Of a DNA stretch of 64,000 bases, positions 6,878 through 24,278 are shown in pieces; position 1 is the first letter of the stretch; each line of letters begins with the position of its first letter. The notes beneath the pieces were generated by a model. It searched no databases and was not told where the DNA came from. It worked only from the letters and a program-made list of their open reading frames with translations. Source of the DNA: Candidatus Omnitrophota bacterium (GTDB lineage: Bacteria > Omnitrophota > Gorgyraeia > B26-G9); the NCBI GenBank assembly GCA_018817165.1, contig JAHITY010000099.1:391-64390 (forward strand), read 5' to 3'. The position numbers and the translations under genes were made by a program.

Positions 6878-7277
6878 TACTGCTTAAAACCTTTTGAATA
6901 ATCCTTCCTTGTCCTTCACTTGATAATTTTACAAGTGACCGCAATTTCCGCTCAGTGATATATCGTTTTGGCATGGGATCGCCCATTTTCTCGATTGTTT
7001 CTTTAACTTCTGGGGCAAGTTTTAACAAAGCGATGAAGTGGTTAACAGTTACTCGGGAAACGCCGATTTGTCGGGCAAGGTCAGACTCATTTCGGGCTTG
7101 ACCGGATTCAATCATGAGTTTGTATTGTTTAGCTAAGTATATGGGATTGCGATAATTATGTTGGGGTTTAATTTTTAAAGTAGTTTTTGTCTCAAGAATA
7201 ATCGTAAAGGAAAAAGTTCTACGCTCCAGCCACTTCGGGGAGCCAAATATTACACTGAGCGAACTCTTGGTTAACAC
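6843..7277 (-). CDS. Small ParB/KorB-like HTH protein (N-terminal CTPase/nuclease domain absent); start codon uncertain (track uses GTG)
   Basis: DLARQIGVSRVTVNHFIALLKLAPEVKETI matches the ParB HTH consensus (LAe.lGkSRs.VanlLRLLkLpeevq); paralogous to the minus-strand ORFs at 10130-10447 and 13047-13502. Confidence 0.5.
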   Translation of the reverse strand: MLTKSSLSVIFGSPKWLERRTFSFTIILETKTTLKIKPQHNYRNPIYLAKQYKLMIESGQARNESDLARQIGVSRVTVNHFIALLKLAPEVKETIEKMGDPMPKRYITERKLRSLVKLSSEGQGRIIQKVLSSIKYDSQPIQQT

Positions 7278-7408
7278 CGGGTTCGCTCTTTGTGTTTCTA
7301 TACAAAAAATTTCCTACCCTACAAATATTTCCATTGACATATTGCAAAAGTGTGTTAATTTATACATGTAAGATAAATATCTGAAAATACTCTCAGGAGG
7401 TATCTACG

Positions 7409-8200: not shown

Positions 8201-9068
8201 AGATAAAGAGAAATTTTCTGACATGATTTACCGGGTTGTAAAACAGACGGGTTTCCCCGCGCAGCTTCTTGAAAAGGATTATTATCTGACGTTGATTCTT
8301 TCCAGGATCAATGATTTGTCCGCAGACCTTATTTTTAAGGGCGGAACGTGTCTGAATAAGGTTTATTATGTCTATTATCGATTAAGCGAAGATTTGGACT
8401 TTAGCATGAAACTGCCCGAATATACAACAACCCGCGGTAATCGGCGTAAATGTATTCAGCAGGTAAAGGATAATATTGAGAAATTCGTTGAACAATTCGG
8501 ATTGAAGGTCGACGATAAGGAAAACCCTGGACGTAATGAATCAAAGCAGTATGTTTATAATTTGTTTTATCAGTCCGCGCTGCGGCCACAGGAGATGAGA
8601 ATTAAATTTGAAATTGGCCTCAGGTTTAATCCGATTCTTGAAACTGAAATAAGGGAAGTTAAACACAAATTTTTGCATCCTTTTACTAAAGAACCATTAT
8701 TTGACGGCGGTAAAGTCAATTGTCTATCGTTAGAAGAGATTGTGAGTGAAAAGCTCCGCGCCGCAGCTCTTAGGTTGACTATTGCTCCTAGAGATTTCTA
8801 TGACCTCGATTTTATTATCCGGCAAGGTTTTAACTTAACCGATAAAAAGGTTCTAAATCTATTGGTTAAAAAGATAGAAGAAGACAACGGCGATCCCGAT
8901 CTGGCAAAGTATAAGATAAACCTCGGGCGTTCAGATAAAGAAATCAAAGACATGAAATCACGGATTGAAAATGAGCTGTTTGATGTATTGACAGTCAGAG
9001 AACGGGAAAACTTTGACTTGGATACGGCGTTGGAGAGGATAAATAGCGTTATGGGGGAAGTTGCATAA
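8190..9068 (+). CDS. AbiEii/AbiGii-family nucleotidyltransferase toxin (DUF1814), copy 1
   Basis: LIFKGGTCLNKVYY...YRLSEDLDFSM is the hallmark GGTaL...R(F/L)SEDiD motif of DUF1814 nucleotidyltransferases. Confidence 0.8.
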   Translation: MLHKDKEKFSDMIYRVVKQTGFPAQLLEKDYYLTLILSRINDLSADLIFKGGTCLNKVYYVYYRLSEDLDFSMKLPEYTTTRGNRRKCIQQVKDNIEKFVEQFGLKVDDKENPGRNESKQYVYNLFYQSALRPQEMRIKFEIGLRFNPILETEIREVKHKFLHPFTKEPLFDGGKVNCLSLEEIVSEKLRAAALRLTIAPRDFYDLDFIIRQGFNLTDKKVLNLLVKKIEEDNGDPDLAKYKINLGRSDKEIKDMKSRIENELFDVLTVRERENFDLDTALERINSVMGEVA

Positions 9069-9392
9069 ATTTAAAAAATTAATGGTGGCAGTATGACAGG
9101 ATGTCTAGAAAAAAACTAAAATGTCCCTAATGATGTAAGAAATATATTTTGGCAAGTATATTAGAGATTAAAATATGTGTGATTTGAATAAGTTAGACAA
9201 GATCATTCCCGCAATAAAAAGGGGGAAATGTGTATTTTGGATTGGTTCTGGATTATCTTGTATGATAACAAATTTAAAAACATGGCTAATGAAATATGTA
9301 ATATTTATGAAAAAAACAACGTTCACTTTTTAAGGGCTTTATGGGAAGAGTGGAATAATAAAAAAGAAAAGGAAATTAGTTAAATAATAGTT

Positions 9393-10133
9393 ATGCTCCC
9401 AATTTACGACTTAAATAAAATCAAATTTGCAATCGATGAAGAGACATTTCAACGCGCGGCTGGATTATATGAAAGTGGGAAAGTGACTGAAGTTGAAGAG
9501 CTTGGTGGAAGTTATACCGCTGTTGTTCTTGGAACAAAGCCATATCGTGTTTCGGTATCTGCTCACAATTTTAAGCATGGACATTGTACTTGTTATCTTG
9601 GTGGGAGGGATAGGATTTGTAAGCACATGGTTGCTCTTGCTCTATATGCGGCGGTGGATGGTCAGCCACTGAAAAATGAAGATAAACAACAGACATCAAA
9701 GATTACATGTAGTGACAATAGGGATATATTAAATAAAGCTAATTTAGCTGCGGTTAAGAAATCGATCACTGATTCAATGCGTTACATTAAACCATACAGA
9801 GGTCCTTCGAATAAATGGTTCGCGAATCAGGATTCACTTCAGGAAGGATGCAATAGATTAAGGGAGATTCTTTATGATTTGCCGGTTAATCGCCAATCGG
9901 CTGATCTTTTGGTTAAATTGCTTTTGCGGTTGGAGAAGAAGCTAAGCGCAGGTGGGGTGGATGATTCTAATGGTATTGTGGGGCAATTAGTTGCTGAAAT
10001 AGTGGCTTTGCTTGAAAAGTTTGCCCAAATTGTTCCGATTTGTATCAGTTCGTTTAAACCGCTCTGTGGAAAAGAATATTGTTTCGGTTGGGAAGATTCT
10101 CTTGTTCGTATTTATGATGAAACAATTTCCTAA
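9393..10133 (+). CDS. SWIM zinc-finger domain protein
   Basis: YRVSVSAHNFKHGHCTCYLGGRDRICKHMVALALYAA matches the SWIM signature C-x-C-x(n)-C-K-H-x2-A. Confidence 0.7.
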   Translation: MLPIYDLNKIKFAIDEETFQRAAGLYESGKVTEVEELGGSYTAVVLGTKPYRVSVSAHNFKHGHCTCYLGGRDRICKHMVALALYAAVDGQPLKNEDKQQTSKITCSDNRDILNKANLAAVKKSITDSMRYIKPYRGPSNKWFANQDSLQEGCNRLREILYDLPVNRQSADLLVKLLLRLEKKLSAGGVDDSNGIVGQLVAEIVALLEKFAQIVPICISSFKPLCGKEYCFGWEDSLVRIYDETIS

Positions 10134-10447
10134 AAACTATTGGTTCCAGTAGTATTTCTCAAGAACCGCTCCGTAATCATCTTTTCCTTCCCATATTCTA
10201 AAATATACTTCTGCTGATCCTCCGGTAGTTTTAGGAGGTTTAATATCTGGCATACCCGTACCCTTGAAATCCCTAGTTTTTGGGCTAGTTGGTTTTGGTT
10301 TAGCCATTCTTCCTTCATAATTCGTGTAAACTCTAGTGCCTTTTCAATCGGATTTTCATATGCTTGTACGTACTGATAATGACGCATTTCTTTCTGCGAA
10401 ACAATATGACTTTTTGGTATAAAATCCGGCTTTTTACCACGAAACAA
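10130..10447 (-). CDS. Small ParB/KorB-like HTH protein, copy 2; likely true start is the internal ATG at 10387
   Basis: LAQKLGISRVRVCQILNLLKLPEDQQKYILEYG is a ParB-type HTH; about 93% nucleotide identity to 13090-13500. Confidence 0.5.
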   Translation of the reverse strand: MFRGKKPDFIPKSHIVSQKEMRHYQYVQAYENPIEKALEFTRIMKEEWLNQNQLAQKLGISRVRVCQILNLLKLPEDQQKYILEYGKEKMITERFLRNTTGTNSF

Positions 10448-10815
10448 AGTCTTCGTTTTATTCTGCCATTTGTAAAAGTATGGGATTTCTTCACTTACTA
10501 CTTTTGAATTTGTTCGCTGTGAGTCTCGTTCGGGGAGCCAAATTATAAACCTTTGTAACGCAATAAGTTACAAGGGTTTTATTTTGCCAGTTTGGACACG
10601 TAGCGAACAAAGTATTGATGCCACTGAAGTTGACATCAGAATAGGAGATGGTAGCATAAGTTTCTTCGACGGTAGTTTGAGATATTTAGTTTGTATTTCA
10701 TCAGAGATGTGAATTTTTTAAGCATTTTTAATAATATGGTTGACATCGGGCAATAATATGGTAGTATATTTGATGTATGAAAATTATATATAGGTAACTG
10801 GAGGAGTTACTTGCT

Positions 10816-11613
10816 ATGAAGAAAAAAACAATAAGTGCCTTAACCCAAAAAGAGGCTGAAATTGTTGCCCGTTTATCATATGAGGAAAAGGATATTGTAA
10901 CGGCGCAAGAACTGGATTCTTTTTTGCCTGGCGATTTTCCTTATCGAAAACAGCTGGTTTACAACCTGAAAAAAAAGGGGATTTTAACCCCCATTAAGAG
11001 GGGAGTATATATCTTTGTACCTTTAGAATCTGTGCCGACCGGACGCAGGGTAAGCGAATTCTTAATTCCTCCCATTTTCTTTCCTAAAGATAACTATTAT
11101 ATCGGTTATTCGACCATGTTTAATTATTATGGGTTTACTGATCAGCAGTTTCAAATTATTTATGTGCTTAATACCACTCGTTGTATGAAAAAGACGATAG
11201 CGGGGGCATCATTTAAATTCGTAAAAATACCGTATAATAGGTTTTATGGTTTAGAGAAAATAAGCATAAAAAACAAGGAGATAATTATAAGTTCAAAAGA
11301 GAGGACATTGATTGATTTAATTTATTTCAACAAACCTGTTGGCGGCATCGAAACAGCGGGTGAAATTCTCAGGCGGTTTGTAACGGAAAAGAAATGCGAT
11401 ATTAAAAAGTTGATTGAATATTCTGTTCAATTTCCCGGGGTTAAGACAAAAAAGGTGATAGGTCTTAATCTTGAAAAGGCTGGTGTTTCAGATAACTTAT
11501 TAAAACCGCTGGAAAAAAGTGTGAAGAATACTTCACTCATCTCATTAGCGTATTCTCGTAAAGGGACTCTTAATAAAAAATGGAAGATTATTATTAATGA
11601 TACACAGAGATAA
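10816..11613 (+). CDS. AbiEi-like antitoxin / transcriptional regulator, copy 2
   Basis: 265 aa, co-linear homolog of 7409-8200 (e.g. YIGYSTMFNYYGF shared); overlaps the downstream toxin gene. Confidence 0.6.
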   Translation: MKKKTISALTQKEAEIVARLSYEEKDIVTAQELDSFLPGDFPYRKQLVYNLKKKGILTPIKRGVYIFVPLESVPTGRRVSEFLIPPIFFPKDNYYIGYSTMFNYYGFTDQQFQIIYVLNTTRCMKKTIAGASFKFVKIPYNRFYGLEKISIKNKEIIISSKERTLIDLIYFNKPVGGIETAGEILRRFVTEKKCDIKKLIEYSVQFPGVKTKKVIGLNLEKAGVSDNLLKPLEKSVKNTSLISLAYSRKGTLNKKWKIIINDTQR

Positions 11614-12472
11614 AGACAAATTTTCTAAATTAGTTGATCGTATTGCTTCTTTAACCGGATTTTATGCCCCATTGATGGAGAAGGACTATTATCTGACGCT
11701 TTTTCTTTCTAAAATAAATGAGCTTTCGGATAATCTTATTTTTAAGGGCGGGACCTGCCTTAATAAGATTTACTATTCTTATTATCGGTTAAGTGAAGAT
11801 TTGGACTTTAGCATGCGCCTTCCTGATTATACGACTACTCGCGATAATAGGCGCAAATGCATCCAGCCGGTAAAAGACAATATAGAAAATTTTGCTAAGC
11901 AGTTTGATTTAAAGCTTGAAGGCGCGGAAAACGCGGGGAGAAACGTATCAAAGCAATATGTTTATTATCTCGCGTATGATTCTGTCCTCCTGCCATCACA
12001 ACAAACAATAACGTTCGAAGTGGGATTAAGGTATAATCCAATTTTAAATCCAGAGTTAAAAGATGTTCAGCACAAATTTCTTAATCCTTTTTCTGATAAA
12101 CCCTTATTTGATGGCGGAAAAGTGAAGAGCATGTCTTTGAATGAAATCGTGAGTGAAAAACTCAGGGCTGCGGCCTTGAGGCAAATAATCGCCCCGCGAG
12201 ATTTCTATGACCTCGATTTTATTATCCGGCAAGGTTTTAACTTAGCGGATAAAGAGGTTATAAAGCTATTCGTTAAAAAGATTGAGGAGGACAATGGCGA
12301 TCTTGATCTGGCAAAATACAAAATCAACCTCGGTCGCTCAGACAAAGAAATCAAAGACATGAAATCACGTATTGAGAATGAGTTGTTTGATGTGTTAACA
12401 GTTAGCGAGCGGGAAAACTTTGACTTGGATACAGCGTTGAAGAGGATTAATGAAGTAATGGGCGGTATTTAA
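11597..12472 (+). CDS. AbiEii/AbiGii-family nucleotidyltransferase toxin (DUF1814), copy 2
   Basis: LIFKGGTCLNKIYY...YRLSEDLDFSM motif; the C-terminal ~110 aa are nearly identical to copy 1. Confidence 0.8.
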   Translation: MIHRDKDKFSKLVDRIASLTGFYAPLMEKDYYLTLFLSKINELSDNLIFKGGTCLNKIYYSYYRLSEDLDFSMRLPDYTTTRDNRRKCIQPVKDNIENFAKQFDLKLEGAENAGRNVSKQYVYYLAYDSVLLPSQQTITFEVGLRYNPILNPELKDVQHKFLNPFSDKPLFDGGKVKSMSLNEIVSEKLRAAALRQIIAPRDFYDLDFIIRQGFNLADKEVIKLFVKKIEEDNGDLDLAKYKINLGRSDKEIKDMKSRIENELFDVLTVSERENFDLDTALKRINEVMGGI

Positions 12473-12490
12473 TTAGGAGCATTATGTAGT

Positions 12491-13084
12491 ATGTCTTTTA
12501 TTCGAATAACCCAAAAACTCCAAAAAGAGATGGGAATAAAAAATGCTGATTTAGTATCGCAGGGAAAGTCCACAGAGGCTTTTCATGAATGGTACGCCCA
12601 TGTTTTTATTCTTGCTCGGAAAAAGCAAGTGATTTTTGTTGAGACGCAGACGTTGTTTTCCTTTTGTATTGAGAATGTTAACCTAAAAGATATTCGAGAG
12701 CGGTTGTCGGGACTTTTTGAGAAAGGTTTCGGGAAGGCTCTTTTTGTTGAGGGAGTAAGCGCTCTAATTATGTCAAAGGTGATGGAGATTTGTCGAGGGG
12801 AATTAAAATTTGCAAAAACTGAGAGCCGAATGACGATAGGGGCGATGAATGAGTTTGTTAAGCAACATAAATTTTGTTTTTCGTATAAAGATAGGGCAAT
12901 TGAGACGCAAGACCAGATGAATCGGTATATGCCGATGCGGGGATTTCCGGATGGATCCAAGGGTTATAAATTCCCCATAGAGGTTTTTGCTAAAGTAGTT
13001 AAAGATCAGTTTGATTTAGATTTCACTCCGCGCAAACAGGACTTTTTTAAGAAAATTTATTCTGATAGGGCGTTAGAGATTTAG
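12491..13084 (+). CDS. Hypothetical protein; third gene of the AbiE cassette 2, in the position taken by the SWIM gene in cassette 1
   Basis: 197-aa ORF with good coding features; no motif recognised. Confidence 0.35.
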   Translation: MSFIRITQKLQKEMGIKNADLVSQGKSTEAFHEWYAHVFILARKKQVIFVETQTLFSFCIENVNLKDIRERLSGLFEKGFGKALFVEGVSALIMSKVMEICRGELKFAKTESRMTIGAMNEFVKQHKFCFSYKDRAIETQDQMNRYMPMRGFPDGSKGYKFPIEVFAKVVKDQFDLDFTPRKQDFFKKIYSDRALEI

Positions 13085-13502
13085 ATGGAAACTCCTCTTT
13101 TCGCAATTGCCTTTCCGTAATCATCTTTTCCTTCCCATATTCTAAAATATACTTCTGCTGATCCTCCGGTAGCTTTAAGAGATTTAATAGCTGACATACC
13201 CGCACACTTGAAATCCCTAGTTTTTGGGCTAGTTGGTTTTGGTTTAGCCCTTCTTCCTTCATAATTCGTGTAAACTCTAGTGCCTTTTCAATAGGATTTT
13301 CATATGCTTGTACGTACTGATAATGACGCATTTCTTTCTGCGAAACAATATTACTTTTTGGTATAAAATCTGGCTTTTCACCACGAAATAAAGTCTTCGT
13401 TTTATTCTGCCATCTGTAATGGTATGGCAATACATCAGTTACAACGCGTGAATTTGTTCGCTGTGAGTCTCGTTCGGGGAGCCAAAAAATCAGAGAGTCC
13501 AA
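13047..13502 (-). CDS. Small ParB/KorB-like HTH protein, copy 3 (track start is TTG; likely true start is an internal ATG)
   Basis: LAQKLGISSVRVCQLLNLLKLPEDQQKYILEYG; near-identical to the copy at 10130-10447. Confidence 0.5.
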   Translation of the reverse strand: MDSLIFWLPERDSQRTNSRVVTDVLPYHYRWQNKTKTLFRGEKPDFIPKSNIVSQKEMRHYQYVQAYENPIEKALEFTRIMKEEGLNQNQLAQKLGISSVRVCQLLNLLKLPEDQQKYILEYGKEKMITERQLRKEEFPSKSLTPYQNKFS

Positions 13503-13818
13503 AAGGGCTCTCTTTTTTTGTCCGCGAGAACTCGAACCTCAAAAAAGGGTATTAGGGGAAAAGACTGTTTTCCCCTATCCCGAATGGGGAATATTTCTCT
13601 GGGTTAGCATCGGGACCCCGAAGAGTTTCTTTGGGGAGTTACTTCATTCGGGGTCGGCGTACTGGAACTTCTCGCGCAAGGAAGGGGTATCCAAGGGGAA
13701 CTGAAAGAGTGCACCTTTAAGGAGTGAGCGGACCTGTTTCTCAAGGGAGCGCTTGTCCCGCCGTATTTTGGCGGGGACACGACAGGTTCGGCGAAGCGAA
13801 AGTCCTCGCGGGGGGAGC
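13474..13818 (+). repeat. Structured ~345-bp repeat, copy 1: GGGGAGCCAAAAAA box, terminator hairpin (CAGAGAGTCC-AAAA-GGGCTCTCT-T7), then a GC-rich element with a closing helix (CCGCGAG...CTCGCGG), a variable middle and a conserved 3' block with hairpin GTCCCGCC-GTATTTT-GGCGGGGAC
   Basis: Direct repeat of 18131-18444; the 3' ~125 nt are nearly identical and the closing helix covaries between copies. Confidence 0.7.
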
Positions 13819-14000
13819 TAAAAAACCTAACAAGTTGTAACTAAATAAGTTGCAGCGGGTTATTTTTTTGCAAAAATCATTGATTCGTGGTATACTTTAA
13901 AATCTTTTTTAGTATGTGATTTTAAATCCTAACTTATTAAAATTGAATAAGTTGAAAGATAAGTAGCTTTAAGGCGGAATGAGGATCATTTAGGGTAAAA

Positions 14001-17000
14001 ATGAGAAAGAAAAAAAGTATCTATAAAATAATAGTCAATATTATTATATTAGCACTTGTGCAGGTATTAGCATTTTCTAATTCTGCATGGGCTCTTGAAG
14101 CTTCTTTGCAAAAAAACAGAGATACTTTATCTCCGCAAATCCAAACAAGTCTTCCATTGATTCAAAATGCCTATAGTTTTTTAAAAGCAAATAAAGAACA
14201 GGGGAATACTCTTTTCTTGCGCACAGAGGCAAGTATTGAAAAAACGCCAAGTGAGTTAAGAAAGGACTTACTTGAGCTTATGGAATTTCTTGGTAAAAAA
14301 GATTTTAAAATTCTTATAGATATAGCTTTTAAAGATAAAGTGCTAACTCAAGATCAATATGAAGTTTTGCTTTATTGCTTAAAGCAAGGGGCTGTATCTC
14401 TTGAAAAAATAGATAGGACTTTTTCACAGCAAAGAAGGGTTGATATTACTACTGTGACCAGGTGGCTTGTAGGCACAAGTGAACAGGGAAGAAAGGAAAT
14501 CGGGGCATATCAGATAATTTATGAGGACGCTTCGCCATCTCTTAGGGAGAAAATAGATCAAAAGCTGGCGGTTTATATTAAAGAAAATATATTTGATTTC
14601 TTCTTGAATCATATGGATGCTGAAATTAAAAATGTCATGGAAAAAGCTATTGAAAACTGGCAGGGTGAAGAGGTTGAAAAAGAAATTATTAGGATTAAGC
14701 TAAGCAATCCTGGTGTTGCATGGAAAGATATATATGAGCATGAAAATGTGAACTTAAAAAAAGGCAAATTTTATAAGACCCTTAAGCGTATAAAAAAGAA
14801 TTTCAATAAAGCTATTGATAATGAGGGAACTGTAATTATTGAAAAAATAATCATAGAAGAAAGCCCTCGAGCATTGAAATATCTTGCAGGTGATCTTATG
14901 GAATTAAAGACGGAATTGCTTGATGTAATCGAAACATCAGAAAGATTAAAAGTAAAAAAAATGGATGAAGAGGAAAAAAGCTTTGTGCTTAGAATGAGTT
15001 TGTTTGAAGGTGAAAAACATAGAGCAATCGATAAGATAAATAAATTTTTTCTGGGCAGATCACAGATGTTCTTGAATGGAAGAACTCTGGAGGAGAATTT
15101 TTATGAAGGGGCAAAGAAAATAAAACAGTTTTTATTGCTGCCTGGAGGGAAATATTTATGCTTCTTTGAGCCTAAAGATGAAATGATCAATAATTCCTTT
15201 GAAAAAAATAATCTTGTTTTTGCTGTGCTAAATTCAAGCTCTAAGGCAAAAAGAATTAATTTAGATAAATATATTATTAGTGGAAAAAGCTTGAGTTTAG
15301 GAGGGAATTTTGTCTGGAACCAGTACAAGATTAATTGCTCAAATTTTCAATCTGCAAATATTGAGTTTCGGGTTGAAAATGATATCCCACGCTTTATTAA
15401 ATTATTGCAAAATAAAGAGGGGCAACAGATCAGAGATAATAAAGGAGAGCCATTAGTAATCGAAGTCTTTGATATGTTTGGACAGAAGGTGTCAGTGCGG
15501 CGTCAGCTTGCGGACAAATATTTTTTAAAACTAAAGCTGAATGATAAGAAAATTCGTTGTTCATATAATGAAGCTGAAAAAAATGTGCATGAGGCGATTG
15601 TTGATCTAAAGAGAATCAGTATTGATCTTGATTCTTGGCAGTTTAAGAAAAAACTGCGTGAAGTAAAAAAAGCTTTGTGGGTTATAAGAGGAGATCTTAA
15701 GGGTAAGGAGCAAGAAACAGCGAGGTTTATCTGTGATATGGCAGGCAGAGATGATCTTTTTGAAATACTACAGAATATTTCGATGAAGGGAATGTTTAGA
15801 TCATATTTAACTTTTCAATCAGCTTTTGATGCTTATATGGCTCGGGATAAAGATAAAAGACATTTTGACAGCCTTAACTGCAGTAAGGCGAAAGGCGGAG
15901 ATATTACTTTGCTTGATGCGGTAAGAAATTATGGGATTTTAAAGCGTAAAATAGAAGCTGAATATAAAGATGTGCATGAAGCACATAAAGAATTTATGTT
16001 TATGGATAAGAAAGATATTTCGTATGTGCAGCTTTCCATGAGAAAAGACGATGGAGGCAATCCAATGTTATTAAAAGCATTTTATAAATTTCGCCAGGAA
16101 CTAAAAGATATATATGGTTTTACTTTGCCTGATAATACACATAAAAGAAAAAGTAAAAAGGAAGTTCAAGCCTTTCTTGATAATATTCCGGAGCGAGAGC
16201 AGACTCCTAAAAAATTGAAAGAAAATAATCTTTGGTGGGTTTATAATGGAGCAAAATATTATAAAATTGTATTGCCAAAAGAAAGAGATTTTATAGATAA
16301 TACAGGATATGATAGCTATAAAGAAAGAATTAATAATAGAAATAAATATCAAGAAGTGGACATGTTTGAATTGTGGCATAGCATGGAAACGGATCAGGAG
16401 GCAAGGAATCAGTTAATTGAATATTTTATGCCGATGATAATAGATACTGTTGAGGATTTTAATGGTCGAAAAGGAAAATATATTACAGAACATTCCCAGT
16501 TTTATCTGGATGGCGATATTAGTAGGGCGAGTGTGGCAATGATTGAGGCAATTGATGACTGGCATCCTGAGATGGATATGATGTTAGATGGTTTTGTTAA
16601 GGATCGGATTATCTCAGCGTTTAAGAAAAGTATAAATGAATTTTATAAAGATAAAAGAATAATGCAGTCATCGAATACGCCTAAAGGGAATAAAGATGGG
16701 AATTATGCAGGTAAAAGTGGTCCTTTTGGCAATGGGAGGATTAATACTCTTGATGATAAATTTGAAGCAAATACTGTTGCTGCTGATGATGCATTCGATA
16801 GGGTTCAGCGTATGGAAAGGGCAGTTGCCGGCATAGGTAAAGGGGATTACAGCTTCTTAGTTGGTAGTGAATTTGAAATCAATGAATCTATGCTTATACC
16901 CAAAATTAGAAAACAGCAATTTGCTGAAGAACTGCGCAGTTATCTGTTAAAGCGAGGTGTCCTTGAAAATATTTCAGGTAAATTTGCTATTTGGGTTATG

Positions 17001-17990
17001 GGCAGTATGGGAAATATCGGGCTTGCTCGAAAAGGAGACAGCGATGTTAATCTCATAGTGCTTATGCAGGCAAGCAATGGCCAATGTAAAGAAGCTGTTT
17101 GGAGTCTTGAGGCGCTGATCGGTACAGGAGAAATATTTGAGGGTAATGATGAAAATTTTATTTTAGAAATCGGAAAAAACGGGAGCAGACAGGAGCTGGA
17201 TTTTTATGCTCCGCAATTTGTTTCATTGCTTGAGAAATATGAGGTAGGAATAAATGGTAAAGGAGCTGCTTCTATTGAGGTGGTTTCCACAAATGCAGCG
17301 GGCTATGGAGATAATCGGGCATTGAAGCGGGCGCGTTTTCATGTGGTTGATGATATTACCGGGATGGGTACCAATGGGATATTGGTATTGGAATCTGATG
17401 AAGGGATAGCCCAAGAACTTAAACAACAAGTCAGAGACAGGTTTGTTGATGATTTTGAGTATCATATTGATTTTGCGAATGAGTACTTAATTTATTTTTT
17501 TGCAGAGCAAGTGGAAAAACTAAAATCAACGATTGATAAGAATAAAAAGGTTGAATTACCTTTAGAGCCAAACGTTGAAATTCAAGAAGAGGCTTCTGAG
17601 GAATCTTCCATATTTCAGAAAGCAGATTCGCCTAGAAATAGAGGCTTTTTTCAGGATAAGGTCAGGCTAGAGGTGTTTAATGGGTTTGTATCGATAAGAT
17701 TAATTGATCTTATCGAAGGCGGCGTGATGGCTTTTAAAGATGAGTGGCGGCATATGCTAACTGTATTTGAAGGAAAAAATATTTTTGTGGATGACTATCT
17801 TAAAACAGATAATGTAGACCCCGGTAAAGAAGAAGCGATTGAAGCGTTAAGTGATGAATTATTGATTTATCTTCAAAAAGAGATTCAGCAAATGTCTGGT
17901 CATCATGAAAAAGGGGGGCAGGGTTGGACATGCAGCAGCTTTGACTTTGAAATGTTAAGAGATAATGCAGAAGTAAAATCAGCAATATAA
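14001..17990 (+). CDS. Giant (1329-aa) signal-anchored, Lys/Glu-rich protein with an embedded minimal nucleotidyltransferase (Pol-beta superfamily) motif
   Basis: N-terminus MRKKKSIYKIIVNIIILALVQVLAFSNSAWA (signal peptide or anchor); about aa 993-1015 WVMGSMGNIGLARKGDSDVNLIVL fits hG[GS]-x10-D-x-D-h (GlnE/GlnD/CD-NTase-like); AT-rich and Lys-rich composition; strong TTGCAA-N17-TATACT promoter at 13868-13896. Confidence 0.55.
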   Translation: MRKKKSIYKIIVNIIILALVQVLAFSNSAWALEASLQKNRDTLSPQIQTSLPLIQNAYSFLKANKEQGNTLFLRTEASIEKTPSELRKDLLELMEFLGKKDFKILIDIAFKDKVLTQDQYEVLLYCLKQGAVSLEKIDRTFSQQRRVDITTVTRWLVGTSEQGRKEIGAYQIIYEDASPSLREKIDQKLAVYIKENIFDFFLNHMDAEIKNVMEKAIENWQGEEVEKEIIRIKLSNPGVAWKDIYEHENVNLKKGKFYKTLKRIKKNFNKAIDNEGTVIIEKIIIEESPRALKYLAGDLMELKTELLDVIETSERLKVKKMDEEEKSFVLRMSLFEGEKHRAIDKINKFFLGRSQMFLNGRTLEENFYEGAKKIKQFLLLPGGKYLCFFEPKDEMINNSFEKNNLVFAVLNSSSKAKRINLDKYIISGKSLSLGGNFVWNQYKINCSNFQSANIEFRVENDIPRFIKLLQNKEGQQIRDNKGEPLVIEVFDMFGQKVSVRRQLADKYFLKLKLNDKKIRCSYNEAEKNVHEAIVDLKRISIDLDSWQFKKKLREVKKALWVIRGDLKGKEQETARFICDMAGRDDLFEILQNISMKGMFRSYLTFQSAFDAYMARDKDKRHFDSLNCSKAKGGDITLLDAVRNYGILKRKIEAEYKDVHEAHKEFMFMDKKDISYVQLSMRKDDGGNPMLLKAFYKFRQELKDIYGFTLPDNTHKRKSKKEVQAFLDNIPEREQTPKKLKENNLWWVYNGAKYYKIVLPKERDFIDNTGYDSYKERINNRNKYQEVDMFELWHSMETDQEARNQLIEYFMPMIIDTVEDFNGRKGKYITEHSQFYLDGDISRASVAMIEAIDDWHPEMDMMLDGFVKDRIISAFKKSINEFYKDKRIMQSSNTPKGNKDGNYAGKSGPFGNGRINTLDDKFEANTVAADDAFDRVQRMERAVAGIGKGDYSFLVGSEFEINESMLIPKIRKQQFAEELRSYLLKRGVLENISGKFAIWVMGSMGNIGLARKGDSDVNLIVLMQASNGQCKEAVWSLEALIGTGEIFEGNDENFILEIGKNGSRQELDFYAPQFVSLLEKYEVGINGKGAASIEVVSTNAAGYGDNRALKRARFHVVDDITGMGTNGILVLESDEGIAQELKQQVRDRFVDDFEYHIDFANEYLIYFFAEQVEKLKSTIDKNKKVELPLEPNVEIQEEASEESSIFQKADSPRNRGFFQDKVRLEVFNGFVSIRLIDLIEGGVMAFKDEWRHMLTVFEGKNIFVDDYLKTDNVDPGKEEAIEALSDELLIYLQKEIQQMSGHHEKGGQGWTCSSFDFEMLRDNAEVKSAI

Positions 17991-18130: not shown

Positions 18131-18444
18131 CGGGGGAGCCAAAAAAATTAGAGAGTCCTTTTGGGCTCTCTGATTTTTCAGCGAGGACGAAGAACCTTAA
18201 AAAAGGGTTTTAGGGGAAAAGATGCCCGGGCTTACAAATCATCTTGAGAGCCTTCTGATGTTTCATGTTCAGGCATTCTCATAGGATTGTTCCCTTCCTA
18301 TCTCGAATGGGGAATATTAAGGGGGAACTGAAAGAGTGCCCCTTTAAGGAGTGAGCGGACCTGTTTCTCAAGGGAGCGCTTGTCCCGCCGTATTTTGGCG
18401 GGGACACGACAGGTTCGGCGAAGCGAAAGTCCTCGCGGGGGAGC
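18131..18444 (+). repeat. Structured repeat, copy 2 (direct repeat of 13474-13818), preceded by a remnant of the ParB-like gene 5' end
   Basis: CGGGGGAGCCAAAAAAATTAGAGAGTCCTTTTGGGCTCTCTGATTTTT, then closing helix CGAGGAC...GTCCTCG, then the identical 3' block with hairpin 18382-18405. Confidence 0.7.
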
Positions 18445-18506
18445 TTGTTTTTTAATCCATTATTATAGAAGCTTATAGTAAGGGGACTTTTTTTTATCTT
18501 GACAAA

Positions 18507-18531
18507 TAGTAATGATTACTATATAGTAATC
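18507..18531 (+). promoter_or_regulatory. Fur-family (Zur-like) operator TAGTAAT-G-ATTACTA with an overlapping half-site, inside the TTGACA-N17-TATAGT promoter of the fur-family gene
   Basis: Perfect 7-1-7 inverted repeat at 18507-18521 plus TAGTAATCAT at 18523-18532; -35 TTGACA at 18499-18504. Confidence 0.65.
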
Positions 18532-18533
18532 AT

Positions 18534-18971
18534 ATGGAAAAGGAAGCGCAGGACCTTAAGAAAATGTTCTATGATAAGTGTGCCGAGAAGGGATTAAAAA
18601 TAACCCCTCAACGTTTGCTTATTTTTGATGAGCTCTCAAAAGCTAAAGATCATCCTACGGCCGATGCCATCTATAGACGTGTACGCAAGAGTCTATCGAA
18701 TATTTCTTTCGATACTGTCTATCGGACTTTATTGTCTTTTACTGAAATAGGTATAGTTAATCTTGTAGAAGGTTCTGGACAGCAAAAACGCTTTGACCCT
18801 AATCGACATCTACATCATCATTTCAGATGTATTAAGTGCGACACTATTTACGATTTTGAGAATGATGCATATAATGATATTGCCGTGCCGAAGGCTGTGC
18901 AGAAACAAGGAGTTATTATCAATAAGAGGGTAGTGTTGGAAGGTATTTGTTCGAAGTGTAAGGGGAAGTAA
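18534..18971 (+). CDS. Fur-family metalloregulator (Fur/Zur/PerR)
   Basis: ITPQRLLIFDEL...HPTADAIYRRV...ISFDTVYRTL DNA-binding domain; HHHFRC..C and C-terminal C..C metal sites. Confidence 0.8.
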   Translation: MEKEAQDLKKMFYDKCAEKGLKITPQRLLIFDELSKAKDHPTADAIYRRVRKSLSNISFDTVYRTLLSFTEIGIVNLVEGSGQQKRFDPNRHLHHHFRCIKCDTIYDFENDAYNDIAVPKAVQKQGVIINKRVVLEGICSKCKGK

Positions 18972-18988
18972 TATTTTTTTACCTATTG

Positions 18989-19007
18989 AATAGTAATTAT
19001 TACTATT
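18989..19007 (+). promoter_or_regulatory. Second Fur-family box, a 19-bp perfect palindrome AATAGTAAT-T-ATTACTATT upstream of the PTPS-like gene
   Basis: Perfect inverted repeat about 110 bp upstream of 19118; same xxGTAATnATTACxx core as the box upstream of the regulator. Confidence 0.6.
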
Positions 19008-19117
19008 TAGTAGTCAAACGCAATTAAAGGAAGGGGTGATTTAGAAAATAAAACATGATTAGCGGAGGGCAGTAAGTAATATAAAAATAAAACACTAACC
19101 AAAAGGAGGGAACTATT

Positions 19118-19612
19118 ATGTTAAACGAAAAGTATACATCAATCGTAAAATTTGATTTTCAGTACGCGCATAGATTTATGAATTGGCCGCGCGAAGCAAA
19201 ACATCTTCATGGGCATTCCGGTCTTGTAACAATTGAACTGGAAGACACCGTAGATCCGGTGACAGGATATGCACACGCTTGTAAAGATGGATTCAAAAAA
19301 GCCTGGGAAGTCTGTGACCATTTCCACCACGCAACAATATTGCAAGAAGGCGACCCTCTGCTTGAGGCGATGCTTGCTGTATATAAAAAGGCAGGCATTA
19401 CTAATGACCCGGAGCATTGTGTTCCTCTTAAAAAGATAGACCACCCACTTGCTTGGTCATATCCGGAATACAGAATAGTTGTATCTAAAAAAGTTACTAC
19501 TTGTGAAAATTGGTGTGAACTTTTATACGAGCTTCTTAAAGACAAGATGCCAATCAAAAAAATTACTTTCCGCTCATCTTCTATGAACTGCGCATCGAAA
19601 GTATTTAAGTAA
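19118..19612 (+). CDS. 6-pyruvoyl-tetrahydropterin synthase (PTPS/QueD)-family protein, candidate Zur-regulated paralog (QueD2-like)
   Basis: FQYAHRF...AKHLHGHSGLV...VDPVTGYAHACKDGFKK...CDHFHHATIL matches the PTPS fold signature (AAHRL...HGH...TGmv.DF..lK...lDH). Confidence 0.55.
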   Translation: MLNEKYTSIVKFDFQYAHRFMNWPREAKHLHGHSGLVTIELEDTVDPVTGYAHACKDGFKKAWEVCDHFHHATILQEGDPLLEAMLAVYKKAGITNDPEHCVPLKKIDHPLAWSYPEYRIVVSKKVTTCENWCELLYELLKDKMPIKKITFRSSSMNCASKVFK

Positions 19613-19633
19613 AAAAAGGTTATATTTGTACTC

Positions 19634-19656
19634 ATCCACCGGCTTAGCCGGTGGAT
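19634..19656 (+). terminator. Rho-independent terminator CCACCGGCT-TA-GCCGGTGG followed by a T-rich run
   Basis: Perfect 9-bp stem immediately after the stop of 19118-19612. Confidence 0.6.
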
Positions 19657-19973
19657 GTTCTTTTCTATTACAAGTTGCGGAATAGAGAGAAGCCAGTAAA
19701 ATCAGAGAGTCCAAAAGGGCTCTCTTTTTTTGTCCGCGAGGGCAAAAACCTCAAAGGGAGTTTATAATCTGATATTATATAGTAGTTCATGTGAAAGTAT
19801 AAGATAAAGCAATGCTTCTATTAAGTAATAAAACATCAATATTGATAGCTTAGTGCAATTATAAGTATTTAAAGCATTATATTTGATATATTGTTGAATA
19901 TTGCAATAATGTATCAAATATGATATATTATATATTATAAGAGTCGTTAAAACTTCAAAAGTGAGGTGTTAAT

Positions 19974-20318
19974 ATGATTAAAAATGAAATGTCAGATGAG
20001 GCAATTTTAAATGAGATTGGATTGCGAATTGCTAGATGTAGGTTAAATAAGAATGTGACTCAATCAGCGCTAGCTATTGAATCAGGGGTTTCAACGCCAA
20101 CCATACAGCGTGCAGAAGGAGGTGCGTCAATTCAATTGGTGAAGTTGATACGAATTTTGCGCGCATTAAACTTGATTGAGAATATAGAATTGCTTGTCCC
20201 TGAACTTGCTTTCAGTCCTCTTCAACAACTTAAGATGAAAGGGAAAATAAGACGCCGCGCTTCATTGCTACATGAAAATGAAAAAGCAGCTGACTGGACA
20301 TGGGGGGATGAGGGATGA
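19974..20318 (+). CDS. hipB: HipB-like XRE-family HTH antitoxin
   Basis: HTH (VTQSALAIESGVSTPTIQRAEGG); its stop overlaps the hipA start (ATGA). Confidence 0.6.
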   Translation: MIKNEMSDEAILNEIGLRIARCRLNKNVTQSALAIESGVSTPTIQRAEGGASIQLVKLIRILRALNLIENIELLVPELAFSPLQQLKMKGKIRRRASLLHENEKAADWTWGDEG

Positions 20319-21610
20319 CTGTTGCAGAAGTAAGACTTTGGGGCAAGAAAATAGGGGCTGTTGCTTGGGATAGCAAAAAGAAAGTTGCGAATTTTGAGTA
20401 CGAGCCTTCCTTTATAAAAAGTGGTATTGAAGTTTCTCCCATAACTATGCCTCTTGATGCCCAAATATATTCCTTTCCAGCTTTGCCATTTGATACTTTC
20501 CACGGGCTTCCTGGATTATTAGCAGATTCTTTGCCAGACAAATATGGAAATGCATTAATTGATGCTTGGCTTGCGAAAGAGGGGAGGTTGCCGGGAAGCT
20601 TTAATTCCGTGGAGCGGCTTTGTTATATTGGAAAACGGGGGATGGGAGCTCTTGAATTTAAGCCTTCACATGAGCCAGGGGGTGGTGTACTAAAAAATAT
20701 CAATATAGAATCCTTGGTTGAACTAGCAAGTGAAATTTTGTCGAAGCGCAACGCTTTTAAAGCTTCTCTTGCAATGCCGACAAGGAAAAAAGCTTTGCAT
20801 GATATATTAAAAGTGGGAACTTCTGCGGGAGGAGCAAGAGCAAAGGCGGTTATTGCTTGGAACCCTAAAACTAAGGAAGTTCGTTCGGGTCAAATTGCTG
20901 CTGAATCAGGCTTTTCTGATTGGATCCTAAAATTTGACGGGGTATCGGCAAATACCGACAAGGAACTTGAAGATACAAAAGGATTTGGTCTTATTGAATA
21001 TGCGTATCATAAAATGGCATTAGGGGCTGGGATACAAATGAGCGAATCTAGTTTGTTATATGAAAATCACAGAAGTCATTTTATGACAAAGAGGTTTGAT
21101 AGAACTGATAAAGGGGAAAAAATACATATGCAATCCTTAAGTGCTCTCGCGCATTATGATTTTAATAGTACGGGGGCATATTCATATGAACAAGCTATTC
21201 AAGTAATGAGAAAATTAAAATTACCGATGATCGAAATAGAAGAACAATTTAGAAGAATTGTCTTTAATATTATAACGAGGAACCAGGATGATCATGTTAA
21301 AAATATAGCCTTCTTAATGAATAAGTTGGGGAAATGGAAACTTTCTCCGGCATTTGATGTTATTTATAGCTATAATCCTTTAGGTATTTGGACGAATATG
21401 CATCAAATGTCTATGAATGGTAAGAGGGATAAATTTAGCAAAGATGATTTTGTGGACTTTGCTAAAAACGCATCAATGAAAAAGGGGATTGCTGAAACTA
21501 TTATTACTCAGGTTAAAGAGGCTGTGAAAAAATGGCCAAATTATGCTAAAGAGGCGGGCATTGCTGAAGAACGACAAAAGTCAATAGCTGCAACTTTCAG
21601 AAAGCTATAA
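20315..21610 (+). CDS. hipA: HipA-family serine/threonine kinase toxin
   Basis: HipA N-domain followed by the catalytic motif ITRNQDDHVKNIAFLM...SPAFDVIYSY (HipA D-x-H-x-K-N). Confidence 0.85.
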   Translation: MTVAEVRLWGKKIGAVAWDSKKKVANFEYEPSFIKSGIEVSPITMPLDAQIYSFPALPFDTFHGLPGLLADSLPDKYGNALIDAWLAKEGRLPGSFNSVERLCYIGKRGMGALEFKPSHEPGGGVLKNINIESLVELASEILSKRNAFKASLAMPTRKKALHDILKVGTSAGGARAKAVIAWNPKTKEVRSGQIAAESGFSDWILKFDGVSANTDKELEDTKGFGLIEYAYHKMALGAGIQMSESSLLYENHRSHFMTKRFDRTDKGEKIHMQSLSALAHYDFNSTGAYSYEQAIQVMRKLKLPMIEIEEQFRRIVFNIITRNQDDHVKNIAFLMNKLGKWKLSPAFDVIYSYNPLGIWTNMHQMSMNGKRDKFSKDDFVDFAKNASMKKGIAETIITQVKEAVKKWPNYAKEAGIAEERQKSIAATFRKL

Positions 21611-21995
21611 AAAATACCTTTAAAAATCAAACAACCAGAAATGTGTTTTGAAATAATTCCGTATAGTCTTTTATCTCTAGCCAGTTGCGAAACTCGTCTA
21701 GCCCAGGGAGCTAAAAAATACGGAAGTCTATTTGGGCTTCCGATTTTTTTACTGCGTTTTGTTTCTGCGCGGAAGGTGGGATTTTTAATGAAGTATAATT
21801 TATGAAATATCATGAAATTCGCAATTGAATTATCTCCTATTTAATAAAAATAAGAAAACTGTTGCGAGTAATAGGTGAAAGCTTGTTCACTTTCTATAGG
21901 TAAAATTTAAAACACCTTGAATTAATTTATGATTGGAGATACAATTGTATTAATATTTATTCGGATAAATAAAAATCAAATAAAATTCAGGATAT

Positions 21996-23216
21996 ATGAT
22001 GAAAGATTGTTTTAATATTTTAATTTTTAATGGTGGTAGCTCATCATTGACTTATAAGATTTTTCAAGTAGATAATTCTAAGAATATTAAGGTTGTTTCT
22101 TATGGAAAAGCGCATAGGGTAGGGGTTAAAGGCGCCAAATCCTCTTTTATCGAACATTGTCTTAATGCTAAGATATCTAAAAATATAACGCCTATTCCAA
22201 GTCATCAAGCTGCGGCTAGGTTAATATTAAAACATATCGAGGATAATTGTATAAAAATAGATTCTATCGGGCATAGGTTTGTGCATGGGGGGAGTCATTT
22301 TAAAGAATCAATTTTGTTGGATAGGAATACTTTAAGTAAACTCTTGTTATGCTTGCCTTTAGCGCCTCTGCATAATCCTATTTCTTTGTCGGTTATTCAG
22401 GAATCAAGAAAATTTTTCCCTGATTTGCCGCAATATGTTGTTTTTGATTCTGCCTTTCATTCCACTATTCCAGCTCATGCTTATACTTATGCTTTGCCTA
22501 AAAGAATAATAAAAAAATTCGGATTTAGAAAATATGGATTCCATGGATTATCTTATTCTTATGTAGCTAGGGAAGTGCCTGTATTTTTAAAAGATAAATC
22601 GAAAAATCTTCGGATCGTTGCTTGTCATCTCGGTACCGGCGGTTCAAGCGTAGCTGCGATTAAAGGCGGCCGATCCGTAGATAATTCTATGGGGTATTCT
22701 CCGCTTTGCGGACTGGTTATGAGTACTCGTTGCGGGGATATTGATCCGATGCTTATGATTTATCTCATGAAAATCTATGACTATCGTCCAGATGAATTAA
22801 TGGATATTTTAAATACGAAAAGCGGTCTTTTGGGAATTTCCGGTTTTTCAAGTGATATTACCGATATAATACAGCGCATTGAAGGAGAAAAAGAAATAGA
22901 CAGGGCGAGCCTTGCTTTGAATATGTATATTCACCGTTTAAGAAAATATATTGGAAGTTATATTGTTGCTCTCGGGGGTGTGGATGCATTAGTATTTACG
23001 GATGATATTGGGGTTCATAACTGGCAGGTAAGAGAAAAGGTTTGCCAGGGCATGGAGTGGGCCGGTATAGTTTTGGACCGTAAGGTAAATCGTAAAATTA
23101 GCGGTAATGAAGTTTCATTGGTAAATGACGCTTGCTCTAAAGTAAAAATAGTGCTTCTTCCTGCTGAAGAAGAATTGATTATTTGTCTTGAGGGAACTAA
23201 ACTGTTGAGGTTGTAA
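21996..23216 (+). CDS. ackA: Acetate/propionate kinase
   Basis: ILIFNGGSSSLTYKIF (ATP motif), FDSAFHSTIP, RKYGFHGLSYSYV, VACHLGTGGSSVAAIKGGRSVDNSMGYSPLCGLVMSTRCGDIDP. Confidence 0.85.
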   Translation: MMKDCFNILIFNGGSSSLTYKIFQVDNSKNIKVVSYGKAHRVGVKGAKSSFIEHCLNAKISKNITPIPSHQAAARLILKHIEDNCIKIDSIGHRFVHGGSHFKESILLDRNTLSKLLLCLPLAPLHNPISLSVIQESRKFFPDLPQYVVFDSAFHSTIPAHAYTYALPKRIIKKFGFRKYGFHGLSYSYVAREVPVFLKDKSKNLRIVACHLGTGGSSVAAIKGGRSVDNSMGYSPLCGLVMSTRCGDIDPMLMIYLMKIYDYRPDELMDILNTKSGLLGISGFSSDITDIIQRIEGEKEIDRASLALNMYIHRLRKYIGSYIVALGGVDALVFTDDIGVHNWQVREKVCQGMEWAGIVLDRKVNRKISGNEVSLVNDACSKVKIVLLPAEEELIICLEGTKLLRL

Positions 23217-24278
23217 ATGATATTAATATTTGATCCATCCTTTTCCGCTTTACGCTGGTGTAATATAGAGGGTGAAAATTGTTCAGAATTTAAATGTGAG
23301 TTTAGCCCGGGATGGTTTGATCGGGTTATGAAAAGTATTGGTAATGTTAAGGAAATCGAAGCCATAGGTTATGTTTTATACCATGGTGGTGAAATTATTA
23401 GAAATCCCGTTGAAATTATTTCTTTGGAATTAATCAAAAAGCTGGAACAATGTGTTAAGTTTGATCCGGAGCGTAATGATTTAACTTTGAAAATTATTAT
23501 GCAATGTATCCGGCAATTTAAAGAAATAAAACATATTTTGCTTTGTGATACTGCCTTTTTTGCGGATTTGCCTGAGGAGGTAAGTACTTATGCGGTTCCT
23601 TATGAATTGCGGGAAAAGGGGATTAGGCGATATGGCAGGCAAGGTTTAAGTCATCAGTGGGCATGGGTGCAAACTAAAGCACTCGCGGAAAAAAATATTT
23701 GTAATGCCATAAGCGTTTATTTGGGCAATCATACCAATATGGTTGCGATAAAAAAAAGTAAAGCCCAAGAGACAAGCGTGGGTTTTACAAGTGTGGAAGG
23801 GATAATATCCACAGTAAGCTGTGGGGATATAGATCCTACTGTTATTTTTCAGATGCATTCTACCGGTATGTCCTTTAGGACAATAAATAGTATATTATCT
23901 CAAGAAAGTGGTTTTAAGGCTTTGTTAGGTAAAAAAAGCAGCTTATCCGATATTTTAAGCAAAAAGGGGAGTTCTAAGGAAATTGCTTTGCGGGAGATTT
24001 ATTGTTACAATATTTTAAAATATTTGGGTGGTTTTATTTCCTCGATTGGCGGGGTGGATACGCTAATATTTATTGGTGAAGATATAAACCAGGCTGTACC
24101 TTTTATTCGTGAAATTTGCTGCAGACTAAGATTTCTTGGGTTAAAACTTAAACGAAGCGTGACTAAAAGTGGAACATTATTTAATTTAACAACAAAGGAT
24201 TCTCCGATCAAAGTTTTTTGTTTAAAATATAATAAATGGAAAGTTTTAGCTTATTGGGCTAAGGAGGGATTGAGATGA
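23217..24278 (+). CDS. Degenerate acetate-kinase-like paralog (probable pseudo-enzyme)
   Basis: Co-linear with AckA (CDTAFFADLPE, VSCGDIDP) but lacks the N-terminal GGSSS phosphate loop and has RQG in place of the catalytic FHG histidine. Confidence 0.6.
   Translation: MILIFDPSFSALRWCNIEGENCSEFKCEFSPGWFDRVMKSIGNVKEIEAIGYVLYHGGEIIRNPVEIISLELIKKLEQCVKFDPERNDLTLKIIMQCIRQFKEIKHILLCDTAFFADLPEEVSTYAVPYELREKGIRRYGRQGLSHQWAWVQTKALAEKNICNAISVYLGNHTNMVAIKKSKAQETSVGFTSVEGIISTVSCGDIDPTVIFQMHSTGMSFRTINSILSQESGFKALLGKKSSLSDILSKKGSSKEIALREIYCYNILKYLGGFISSIGGVDTLIFIGEDINQAVPFIREICCRLRFLGLKLKRSVTKSGTLFNLTTKDSPIKVFCLKYNKWKVLAYWAKEGLR

Follow-up and report, generated by a model that had tools for sequence, protein, structure and literature searches.

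Sigma factors dock on the beta-prime clamp helices of RNA polymerase through region 2.1/2.2. Members of the Candidatus Omnitrophota (Ca. Omnitrophota) have been described as host-dependent or predatory, and their giant proteins, which mostly bear a signal peptide or transmembrane (TM) segment, have been read as effectors (10.1101/2023.11.21.568195; 10.64898/2026.06.07.730766). A signal peptide or TM helix is carried by 94% of long Omnitrophota proteins (10.64898/2026.06.07.730766). Neither paper mentions a sigma-like or nucleotidyltransferase (NTase) module, and a three-term full-text literature search returned nothing relevant. Here we describe a gene in a 64,000-nucleotide (nt) stretch of DNA from a Ca. 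Omnitrophota bacterium (assembly GCA_018817165.1, contig JAHITY010000099.1, positions 391 to 64,390 of the forward strand; hereafter the window). Its product contains a domain resembling sigma-70 region 2 followed by an NTase domain of Pol-beta fold, whose nearest superfamily relatives by fold are TUT4/TUT7, GLD-2, Cid1 and CutA, the DrrA/GlnE-type AMPylases, ANT(4')/AAD(9) and MNT.

The open reading frame (ORF) runs exactly as the initial annotation had it, from 14001 to 17990 on the + strand, and encodes 1329 amino acids (aa). Searched as a single sequence, the whole protein had no match in Pfam, PADLOC or PDB sequences, and NCBIfam gave only a weak SigI match to residues 792-875. Seven sub-segments searched against Pfam, NCBIfam and PADLOC likewise returned weak SigI matches only. 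Local domain mapping against homologues indicated a modular protein consisting of a leader, modules A, B, C and D, a linker, and modules E and F. Over the last 560 residues the sigma2-like domain, a flexible Gly/Asn-rich linker, the NTase domain and a small alpha/beta domain together make up a conserved module. Its features are as follows.

14001..17990, + strand: the studied ORF, 1329 aa, listed by NCBI as 'MAG: hypothetical protein KJ915_09285, Candidatus Omnitrophica' (MAG, metagenome-assembled genome)
16371..16655, + strand: sigma-70 domain-2-like domain (module D), residues ~791-885, with the pattern of regions 2.1-2.4 and an insertion between 2.1 and 2.2
16656..16805, + strand: Gly/Asn/Lys-rich linker, residues ~886-935, conserved (S..P.GNKdG.N..GK.GPFG.G...T.dD) yet predicted to be disordered
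16896..17555, + strand: NTase domain of Pol-beta fold (module E) followed by a long helix, residues ~966-1185, predicted with pLDDT 88-98
17001..17051, + strand: NTase motif GSMGNIGLARKGDSDVN, residues 1001-1017
17277..17279, + strand: E1093 in strand SIEVVS, a nearly invariant E/D and candidate third metal ligand
17646..17987, + strand: small alpha/beta C-terminal domain (module F), residues ~1216-1329, kept in the closer homologues P0003-P0005, P0010 and P0011

A likeness to sigma-70 region 2 ahead of the NTase motif had been noticed from the sequence alone, and it withstood both sequence and fold comparison. When residues 780-900 were searched alone, six to ten SigI/sigma models of NCBIfam matched (E = 9e-6 to 5e-4), as was also the case for the equivalent segment of the homologue P0002. 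Of 44 matches of the family profile to PDB sequences, 36 were sigma factors, all aligned over region 2, with sigmaK the best (E = 2.2e-4); the patterns ARN.LIE... and D.i..a..a.iEaid.W are visible in the alignment. Residues 771-1329 were modelled by AlphaFold2 (AF2) together with 20 homologous modules (mean pLDDT 75.5), and the model was compared with known structures by Foldseek, which returned the sigma-2-like and Pol-beta NTase classes in agreement with the sequence evidence. Residues ~791-885 are, by profile matches and predicted fold, a genuine sigma-2-like domain. The protein is not a sigma factor, because this domain begins only after ~790 residues and the N-terminus is a signal-like leader. 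In the AF2 model, the sigma2-like domain is followed by a conserved 46-residue linker that is predicted to be disordered.

The same model and fold search upheld the proposal that a Pol-beta NTase is buried in the protein. The predicted order of elements is a helix, the strand FAIWVMG, a short helix, the strand (D)VNLIVLM, a helix, two strands, further helices and the strand SIEVVS, so that the minimal alpha-beta-alpha-beta-alpha-beta core is present. The domain fits no single Pol-beta subfamily best, and has no sequence match in Pfam, NCBIfam, PADLOC or the sequences of solved structures. The motif string on which the proposal had rested, GSMGNIGLARKGDSDVNLIVL, is indeed present, but it occupies residues 1001-1021 and does not lie around residue 995; the aspartates called D1006 and D1008 are D1013 and D1015. 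A loose pattern of this kind, G[GS]-x9-13-D-x-[DE], arises in 38% of shuffles of the studied protein and therefore is by itself no evidence for an NTase. The protein has no instance of the stricter hG[GS]..Dh[DE]h.

More was learned from a family alignment of 30 copies covering the motif, taken from 25 proteins. The family signature reads hhhGS[ML]Gx[IL]GxAxKxx[SC][DN]xNhhhh ... IGK ... A[ST][IL]E.VS ... R..FH ... G.N..LV.ES. An hG[GS] element ends the first strand (V-M-G1001-S1002), in which both the Gly and the Ser are nearly invariant (at least 90%), as is D1015; R1110 and N1125 are also strongly conserved. The strand that canonically carries two carboxylates, [DE]h[DE]h, here reads D1015-V-N1017-L, with N1017 standing at the canonical position of the second carboxylate and invariant in 30/30 aligned copies. 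P0016, P0026 and P0029 have N-x-N in place of D-x-N. The first aspartate of the supposed DxD, D1013, varies across the family (D/E/L/A/S/R/N/Y). The description of the motif as a textbook catalytic DxD is thus superseded by a family signature of GS...D-x-N...E, in which D1013 is variable and N1017 invariant.

The family is small. In 5.8 billion clustered proteins, only the studied protein and one homologue, P0002 (53% identical), were found. With a trimmed alignment of these two proteins as profile, an exhaustive HMMER search of 1.84 billion representatives gave 33 proteins, among which 13 reached E <= 1e-30. Most are mosaic proteins of 2,000-7,000 aa, and the widely shared core is module D, the linker and module E, sometimes with F. 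This core occurs twice in P0003, and its NTase part three times in P0012. The five members that have a source name or assembly title are all from Ca. Omnitrophota; among the source names are 'metallophosphoesterase [Candidatus Omnitrophota]' for P0007 (7,051 aa), 'helix-turn-helix domain-containing protein [Candidatus Omnitrophota]' for P0012 and 'glycerate-2-kinase/RsmA...' for P0006. The mosaic nature of the family is also visible in P0020, residues 78-466 of which are an intein (Intein_splicing/Hint), and in P0021, which ends in a fragment of phosphate acetyltransferase (PTA_PTB) at residues 698-787. Taxonomy was further surveyed by scanning one genome per species for the GS...D/N-x-N motif, written as a degenerate DNA pattern, and verifying hits by hidden Markov model (HMM). 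The scan gave 11 loci, most of them in reading frames open for >2,666 aa. Nine were true family members: Ca. Omnitrophota MAGs held six, three of which share a contig, MAGs with the label Planctomycetia or Planctomycetales held two, and a MAG with no title but 'uncultured bacterium' held one. The other two, from Thermoplasmata, were chance matches.

The protein is quite possibly, and we put this forward tentatively, an ordinary chromosomal, lineage-specific multidomain protein of Ca. Omnitrophota, exported or anchored, whose module may bind RNA polymerase or nucleic acid and may bind or transfer a nucleotide in a non-canonical way, as profile comparisons and predicted folds suggest. In this reading, RNA polymerase or single-stranded nucleic acid would be held by the sigma2-like domain, with further contacts to DNA through helix-turn-helix (HTH)-type domains. 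A nucleoside triphosphate would occupy the NTase domain, either for nucleotide transfer with a non-canonical metal site or for nucleotide sensing. The GS pair, D1015, E1093, R1110, N1125 and N1017 are kept across proteins whose modules are only 23-47% identical to that of the studied protein; the near-invariance of D1015 and E1093 and the invariance of N1017 therefore point to a constrained ligand site and not to a decayed one.

Several points weigh against this reading. To our knowledge, no active Pol-beta NTase so far characterised has an Asn as second metal ligand, so that the domain may lack catalytic activity. That D1015, N1017 and E1093 take the three metal-ligand positions is itself a prediction from strand register and motif alignment, not from superposition. 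The sigma-3 and sigma-4 domains that would follow region 2 are absent, the sigma2-like domain leading instead into the linker, and the aromatic residues of region 2.3/2.4 that recognise the -10 element are not evident in the family-profile alignments. Finally, a predicted Sec-type leader, which would place the N-terminus inside and the bulk of the protein outside the membrane or secrete it, is hard to square with binding to the cell's own RNA polymerase or DNA.

The N-terminal half bears on what else the protein might be. An AF2 model of residues 30-790 had a mean pLDDT of 69.5, with residues ~89-164, 209-279, 419-499 and 599-769 well predicted. A fold search with the model as a whole gave only HTH, winged-helix and sigma-region-4-type matches. 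Three modules were delimited by comparison with homologues.

14298..15140, + strand: module A, helical, residues ~100-380, shared with the product of ORF1 on contig L001 and with P0022, P0028, P0031 and P0033
15153..15575, + strand: module B, a beta-rich domain, residues ~385-525, shared with P0025, P0030, P0034, P0006 and P0007
15786..16130, + strand: module C, two helical repeats of ~57 aa, residues ~596-710

The 57-aa repeat has the consensus ..Y....y.ALm.rP...RT...L......GG[ND]..Ll.Ay.kF..eL...YgF.LP and is present in 37 copies in P0003, 22 in P0004 and 16 in P0005, and is also found in P0012; in homologues the C-terminal module is often preceded by such repeats (up to 37). Profiles of the repeat and of the N-terminal half matched only designed helical-repeat proteins, or noise, among PDB sequences.

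These repeats bring in a serious rival, which we nonetheless consider rather unlikely: that the NTase domain is a pseudoenzyme, like NF45/NF90 and MiD51, and that the sigma2- and HTH-like domains are interaction modules in structural, surface or membrane-associated scaffolds built of helical repeats. The replacement of DxD by D-x-N in all copies, or by N-x-N in the three proteins named above, is what a non-catalytic scaffold would lead one to expect. The same can be said of a module set among dozens of helical repeats whose PDB sequence matches are designed proteins only, and of the absence of any match to an enzymatic family model. Decayed pseudoenzymes usually vary at such ligand positions, whereas here the invariant Asn and its strongly conserved partners are retained at the low identities given above; this argues against the scaffold and for a ligand site under constraint.

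The leader raises a different alternative. A signal peptide or anchor had been proposed for the N-terminus, and the basic start, the hydrophobic stretch at residues ~5-32 (the sole hydrophobic segment of the protein) and the AWA|LE that follows are all consistent with one.

14001..14093, + strand: leader, residues 1-31, comprising MRKKK, ~20 hydrophobic residues and AWA|LE; Sec-type signal peptide or signal anchor
14124..14138, + strand: TLSPQ motif, residues 42-46, found after the hydrophobic segment in many large proteins of the lineage that are otherwise unrelated
14001-14140, 44655-44800 and 57153-57300 of the window: leader-bearing stretches
12-200, 3951-4100 and 7969-8120 of contig L001: leader-bearing stretches
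559-640 of contig L015: leader-bearing stretch

The general pattern is a basic N-terminus, ~20 hydrophobic residues, a further 10-20 residues and then [TN]L[SA]P, with [QSTE] as the next residue. Three proteins of the window have it, namely the studied protein, a 1410-aa S8-peptidase protein (44655) and a 504-aa GT1 glycosyltransferase (57153). It is also present on P0003-P0005, on all three giant ORFs of L001 and on a fructose-1,6-bisphosphatase (FBPase)-domain protein in L015. The 1410-aa ORF was considered as a paralogue of the studied protein and rejected. A class III (prepilin) signal was rejected by eye, since the G|F..E motif is absent. The carriers bear domains of cytoplasmic type (S8 peptidase, GT1 glycosyltransferase, FBPase, and GNAT with NTP_transf_2), and the leader may be a lineage-specific sorting or anchoring signal for such domains.

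An export-type leader is the main tension in our interpretation, and it favours either an effector that acts in another cell or a non-canonical topology. As an exported effector of an epibiotic or predatory Omnitrophota, the protein would mimic or compete with a sigma factor in the prey or host cell, where its sigma2-like and HTH-type domains would dock on the RNA polymerase or DNA. Its NTase would nucleotidylate RNA polymerase, nascent RNA or another target, and transcription would be shut down or hijacked. The presence of the leader with [TN]L[SA]P on numerous large proteins whose enzyme domains are of cytoplasmic type, the published reading of Omnitrophota giant proteins as effectors (10.1101/2023.11.21.568195; 10.64898/2026.06.07.730766) and the retention of a sigma2 fold with a region-2.2-like pattern are in its favour. 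The effector idea of the initial annotation may stand; the exported effector described here we regard as unlikely, given that no conserved secretion-system neighbour was seen at the homologue contigs examined, that the long hydrophobic stretch fits a membrane anchor equally well, and that the NTase lacks the canonical second carboxylate. Decidedly unlikely in our estimation is its most specific form, a device exported via the [TN]L[SA]P leader that would dock on the polymerase of the prey and nucleotidylate the polymerase or the transcript by means of an Asp/Asn/Glu variant of the Pol-beta site. If this were true, the leader would be a previously unrecognised cargo-sorting signal of the Omnitrophota.

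A further proposal concerned the setting of the gene, which was said to lie between direct repeats inside a defence/toxin-antitoxin (TA) island, to be AT-rich relative to its neighbours and possibly to be mobile cargo. The direct repeats are real, at 13476-13825 and 18133-18441 (310-350 nt), and they bracket exactly the studied gene.

13476..13825, + strand: upstream repeat copy, which starts GGGGAGCCAAAAAA, with a terminator-like hairpin at 13492-13513 and a GC-rich 127-nt core at 13688-13814
13867..13896, + strand: promoter-like site TTGCAA-17-TATACT with a TG extension, ~105 nt 5' of the ATG, a consensus match only
18133..18441, + strand: downstream repeat copy, which also starts GGGGAGCCAAAAAA, with a hairpin at ~18148-18169 and the 127-nt core at 18315-18441

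The repeat is a non-coding element, of which there are only two copies in the window, with the hairpin at its 5' end and the core, 97% identical between the copies, at its 3' end; the hairpin at ~18148-18169 is likely to be the terminator of the studied gene. No Rfam family matched the repeats at its gathering threshold, the only sub-threshold match being to ylbH (E = 0.25), there were no tRNA or tmRNA matches, and the folding energy equalled that of shuffles on both strands. An exact 26-nt probe from the core had no hits in JGI metagenome contigs, and an exact 31-nt core segment was absent from contigs L001 and L002; diverged copies were not searched for in either case. An independent assembly of the same gene was found in a Logan contig from SRR6514274 (L020, 4586 nt), which breaks off 216 nt 5' and 380 nt 3' of the gene, inside the two repeats, as is expected of repeats. 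By themselves the repeats are insufficient as a sign of mobility. The composition of the gene deviates only slightly (GC 34.6% vs 37.2% for the window), other 1-kb bins of the window are lower in GC, and the GC-rich neighbours are the flanking repeats themselves. Similarly, the protein had been called Lys/Glu-rich; K makes up 10.2% and E 9.0%, low-complexity tracts are absent, and this composition is unremarkable because the genome GC is 37%.

A defence/TA island does exist, upstream of the gene (1979-13502).

1979-5399: BpuJI-like restriction endonuclease with a C5 DNA methylase on either side (Pfam)
5807-6877: PIN_12 (Pfam)
7409-9068 and 10816-12472: two AbiEi/AbiEii pairs (Pfam)
9393-10133: ORF without a Pfam match
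12491-13084: DUF6933 (Pfam)
13047-13502, - strand: ParB-type HTH gene
18534-18971: fur, downstream of the studied gene

The gene adjoins this island; downstream of it are fur and queD, which are not defence genes, and only then an HTH-HipA (HipBA) pair, followed by acetate-kinase-like genes and folE2. There is no sign of a role in a defence system. Near-palindromic boxes (AATAGTAATGATTACTAT / ATAGTAATTATTACTATT) lie just 5' and 3' of fur, at 18490-18539 and 18974-19023, and are probably Fur boxes; the one 5' of fur overlaps an 11-of-12 promoter match at 18499-18527. Two adjoining ORFs of the acetate-kinase family (21996-23216 and 23217-24278, the second covering profile positions 78-389 only) may be a duplicated or split gene.

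The surroundings of homologues are of other kinds. The orthologue P0002 lies on contig L001 between two other giant ORFs, the first of which (ORF1) shares module A; after the P0002 gene and ORF3 come GH116, smpB and, further on, queD, which is downstream of the gene both here and at this orthologous locus. The ORF3 product (L001 7969-11550; 1193 aa) combines the same leader with a GNAT domain and a canonical NTP_transf_2/Polbeta domain of Pfam. It adjoins P0002, so that two different NTase-bearing giant proteins stand side by side; it was rejected as a homologue of the studied protein, there being no homology beyond the leader. P0005 stands next to an FBPase-domain giant protein and a radical-SAM gene, and P0004 next to an AMP-binding/acyltransferase gene and cbiMQO. 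Of the four homologue contigs examined, those with named neighbours (P0004 and P0005) thus differ from each other and from L001. P0010 is on a 2.4-kb contig with unannotated, cut-off neighbours, and the contig of P0013 holds that gene alone. No neighbours common to the homologues were seen at the contigs examined.

That the repeat-bounded cassette is an inserted anti-phage or toxin gene, whose NTase would make a nucleotide signal or nucleotidylate a target, is very improbable and the least supported reading: the exact bracketing by repeats, the restriction-modification system, PIN_12 and AbiE pairs upstream with HipBA downstream, and the 4.6-kb Logan contig ending inside both repeats can be cited for it, and against it are the lack of a PADLOC match to the protein, the lack of any match in 2.9 million viral contigs (degenerate motif pattern and tblastn), the absence of a partner or effector gene and of an integrase domain among the Pfam-scanned ORFs on both sides (1979-13502 and 18534-25063, where ORF 9393-10133 had no match at all), the position of the L001 orthologue between two giant ORFs with the exact 31-nt core segment missing, the unrelated neighbours of other family members and the small GC difference.

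We thus return to a lineage-specific module that may bind both RNA polymerase or nucleic acid and a nucleotide. What the family offers is a pairing of a sigma-factor core-binding domain with a Pol-beta fold that bears an invariant Asn as second metal ligand; such a domain would either catalyse in a new way or sense nucleotides as a conserved function. The family also supplies a recognisable and testable module for the 'dark' fraction of Omnitrophota giant proteins, and its shared leader is perhaps a sorting signal. Should the sigma-like domain bind RNA polymerase, the family would represent a new link between transcription and the transfer or sensing of nucleotides, or else a new kind of effector acting between bacteria; should it not, this would be one more lineage-specific mosaic protein.

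Set beside known systems, the protein is a new architectural and active-site variant of known folds, in a combination that Pfam, NCBIfam and PADLOC do not contain and that is found mainly in Ca. Omnitrophota, an uncultured and poorly known phylum. With sigma-70 factors (SigI, SigK, RpoS, ECF) it shares a sequence pattern like that of regions 2.1/2.2, where ARNQLIEYF...DGDISRASVAMIEAIDDW here corresponds to ARNMLIEHNL...EDLISIGTIGLIKGIESY in sigmaK, whereas its scores against sigma models are 19-26 bits vs cut-offs of >240. Pol-beta NTases have in common with it a helix, a strand ending in hGS, a short helix, the strand of the first Asp, a later acidic strand and a long helix after the core. 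The studied domain differs from them in that the [DE]h[DE]h strand has an invariant Asn instead of its second carboxylate, that no Pfam, NCBIfam or PDB NTase matches by sequence, and that the domain follows a sigma2-like domain in the same chain and occurs within giant proteins. GlnE/GlnD/DrrA-type enzymes have a conserved G-x11-[DE]-x-[DE], which is lacking here together with any match to the GlnE/GlnD models. The CD-NTases of CBASS are similar in fold, no more so than other NTases, but they match SMODS/Mab-21-type models and adjoin a Cap effector gene, neither of which applies here, and their size and architecture are unrelated. MNT/AbiEii proteins, which are small free-standing NTases paired with HEPN or AbiEi, also have the Pol-beta fold, and AbiEii genes happen to lie 1.5-6 kb upstream; these belong to separate, complete AbiE pairs, whereas the studied protein has 1329 aa and neither a Pfam NTP_transf_2/AbiEii match nor an adjacent partner. 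The closest likeness in setting is to the Omnitrophota giant proteins (preprints: West-Roberts et al. 2023, 10.1101/2023.11.21.568195; 2026, 10.64898/2026.06.07.730766), with which the family shares the phylum, an N-terminal signal or TM segment and a mosaic build from cytoplasmic-type enzyme domains and tandem repeats. P0006, P0007 and P0012 are giant mosaic proteins of this type, from which the studied protein, at only 1329 aa, differs in size.

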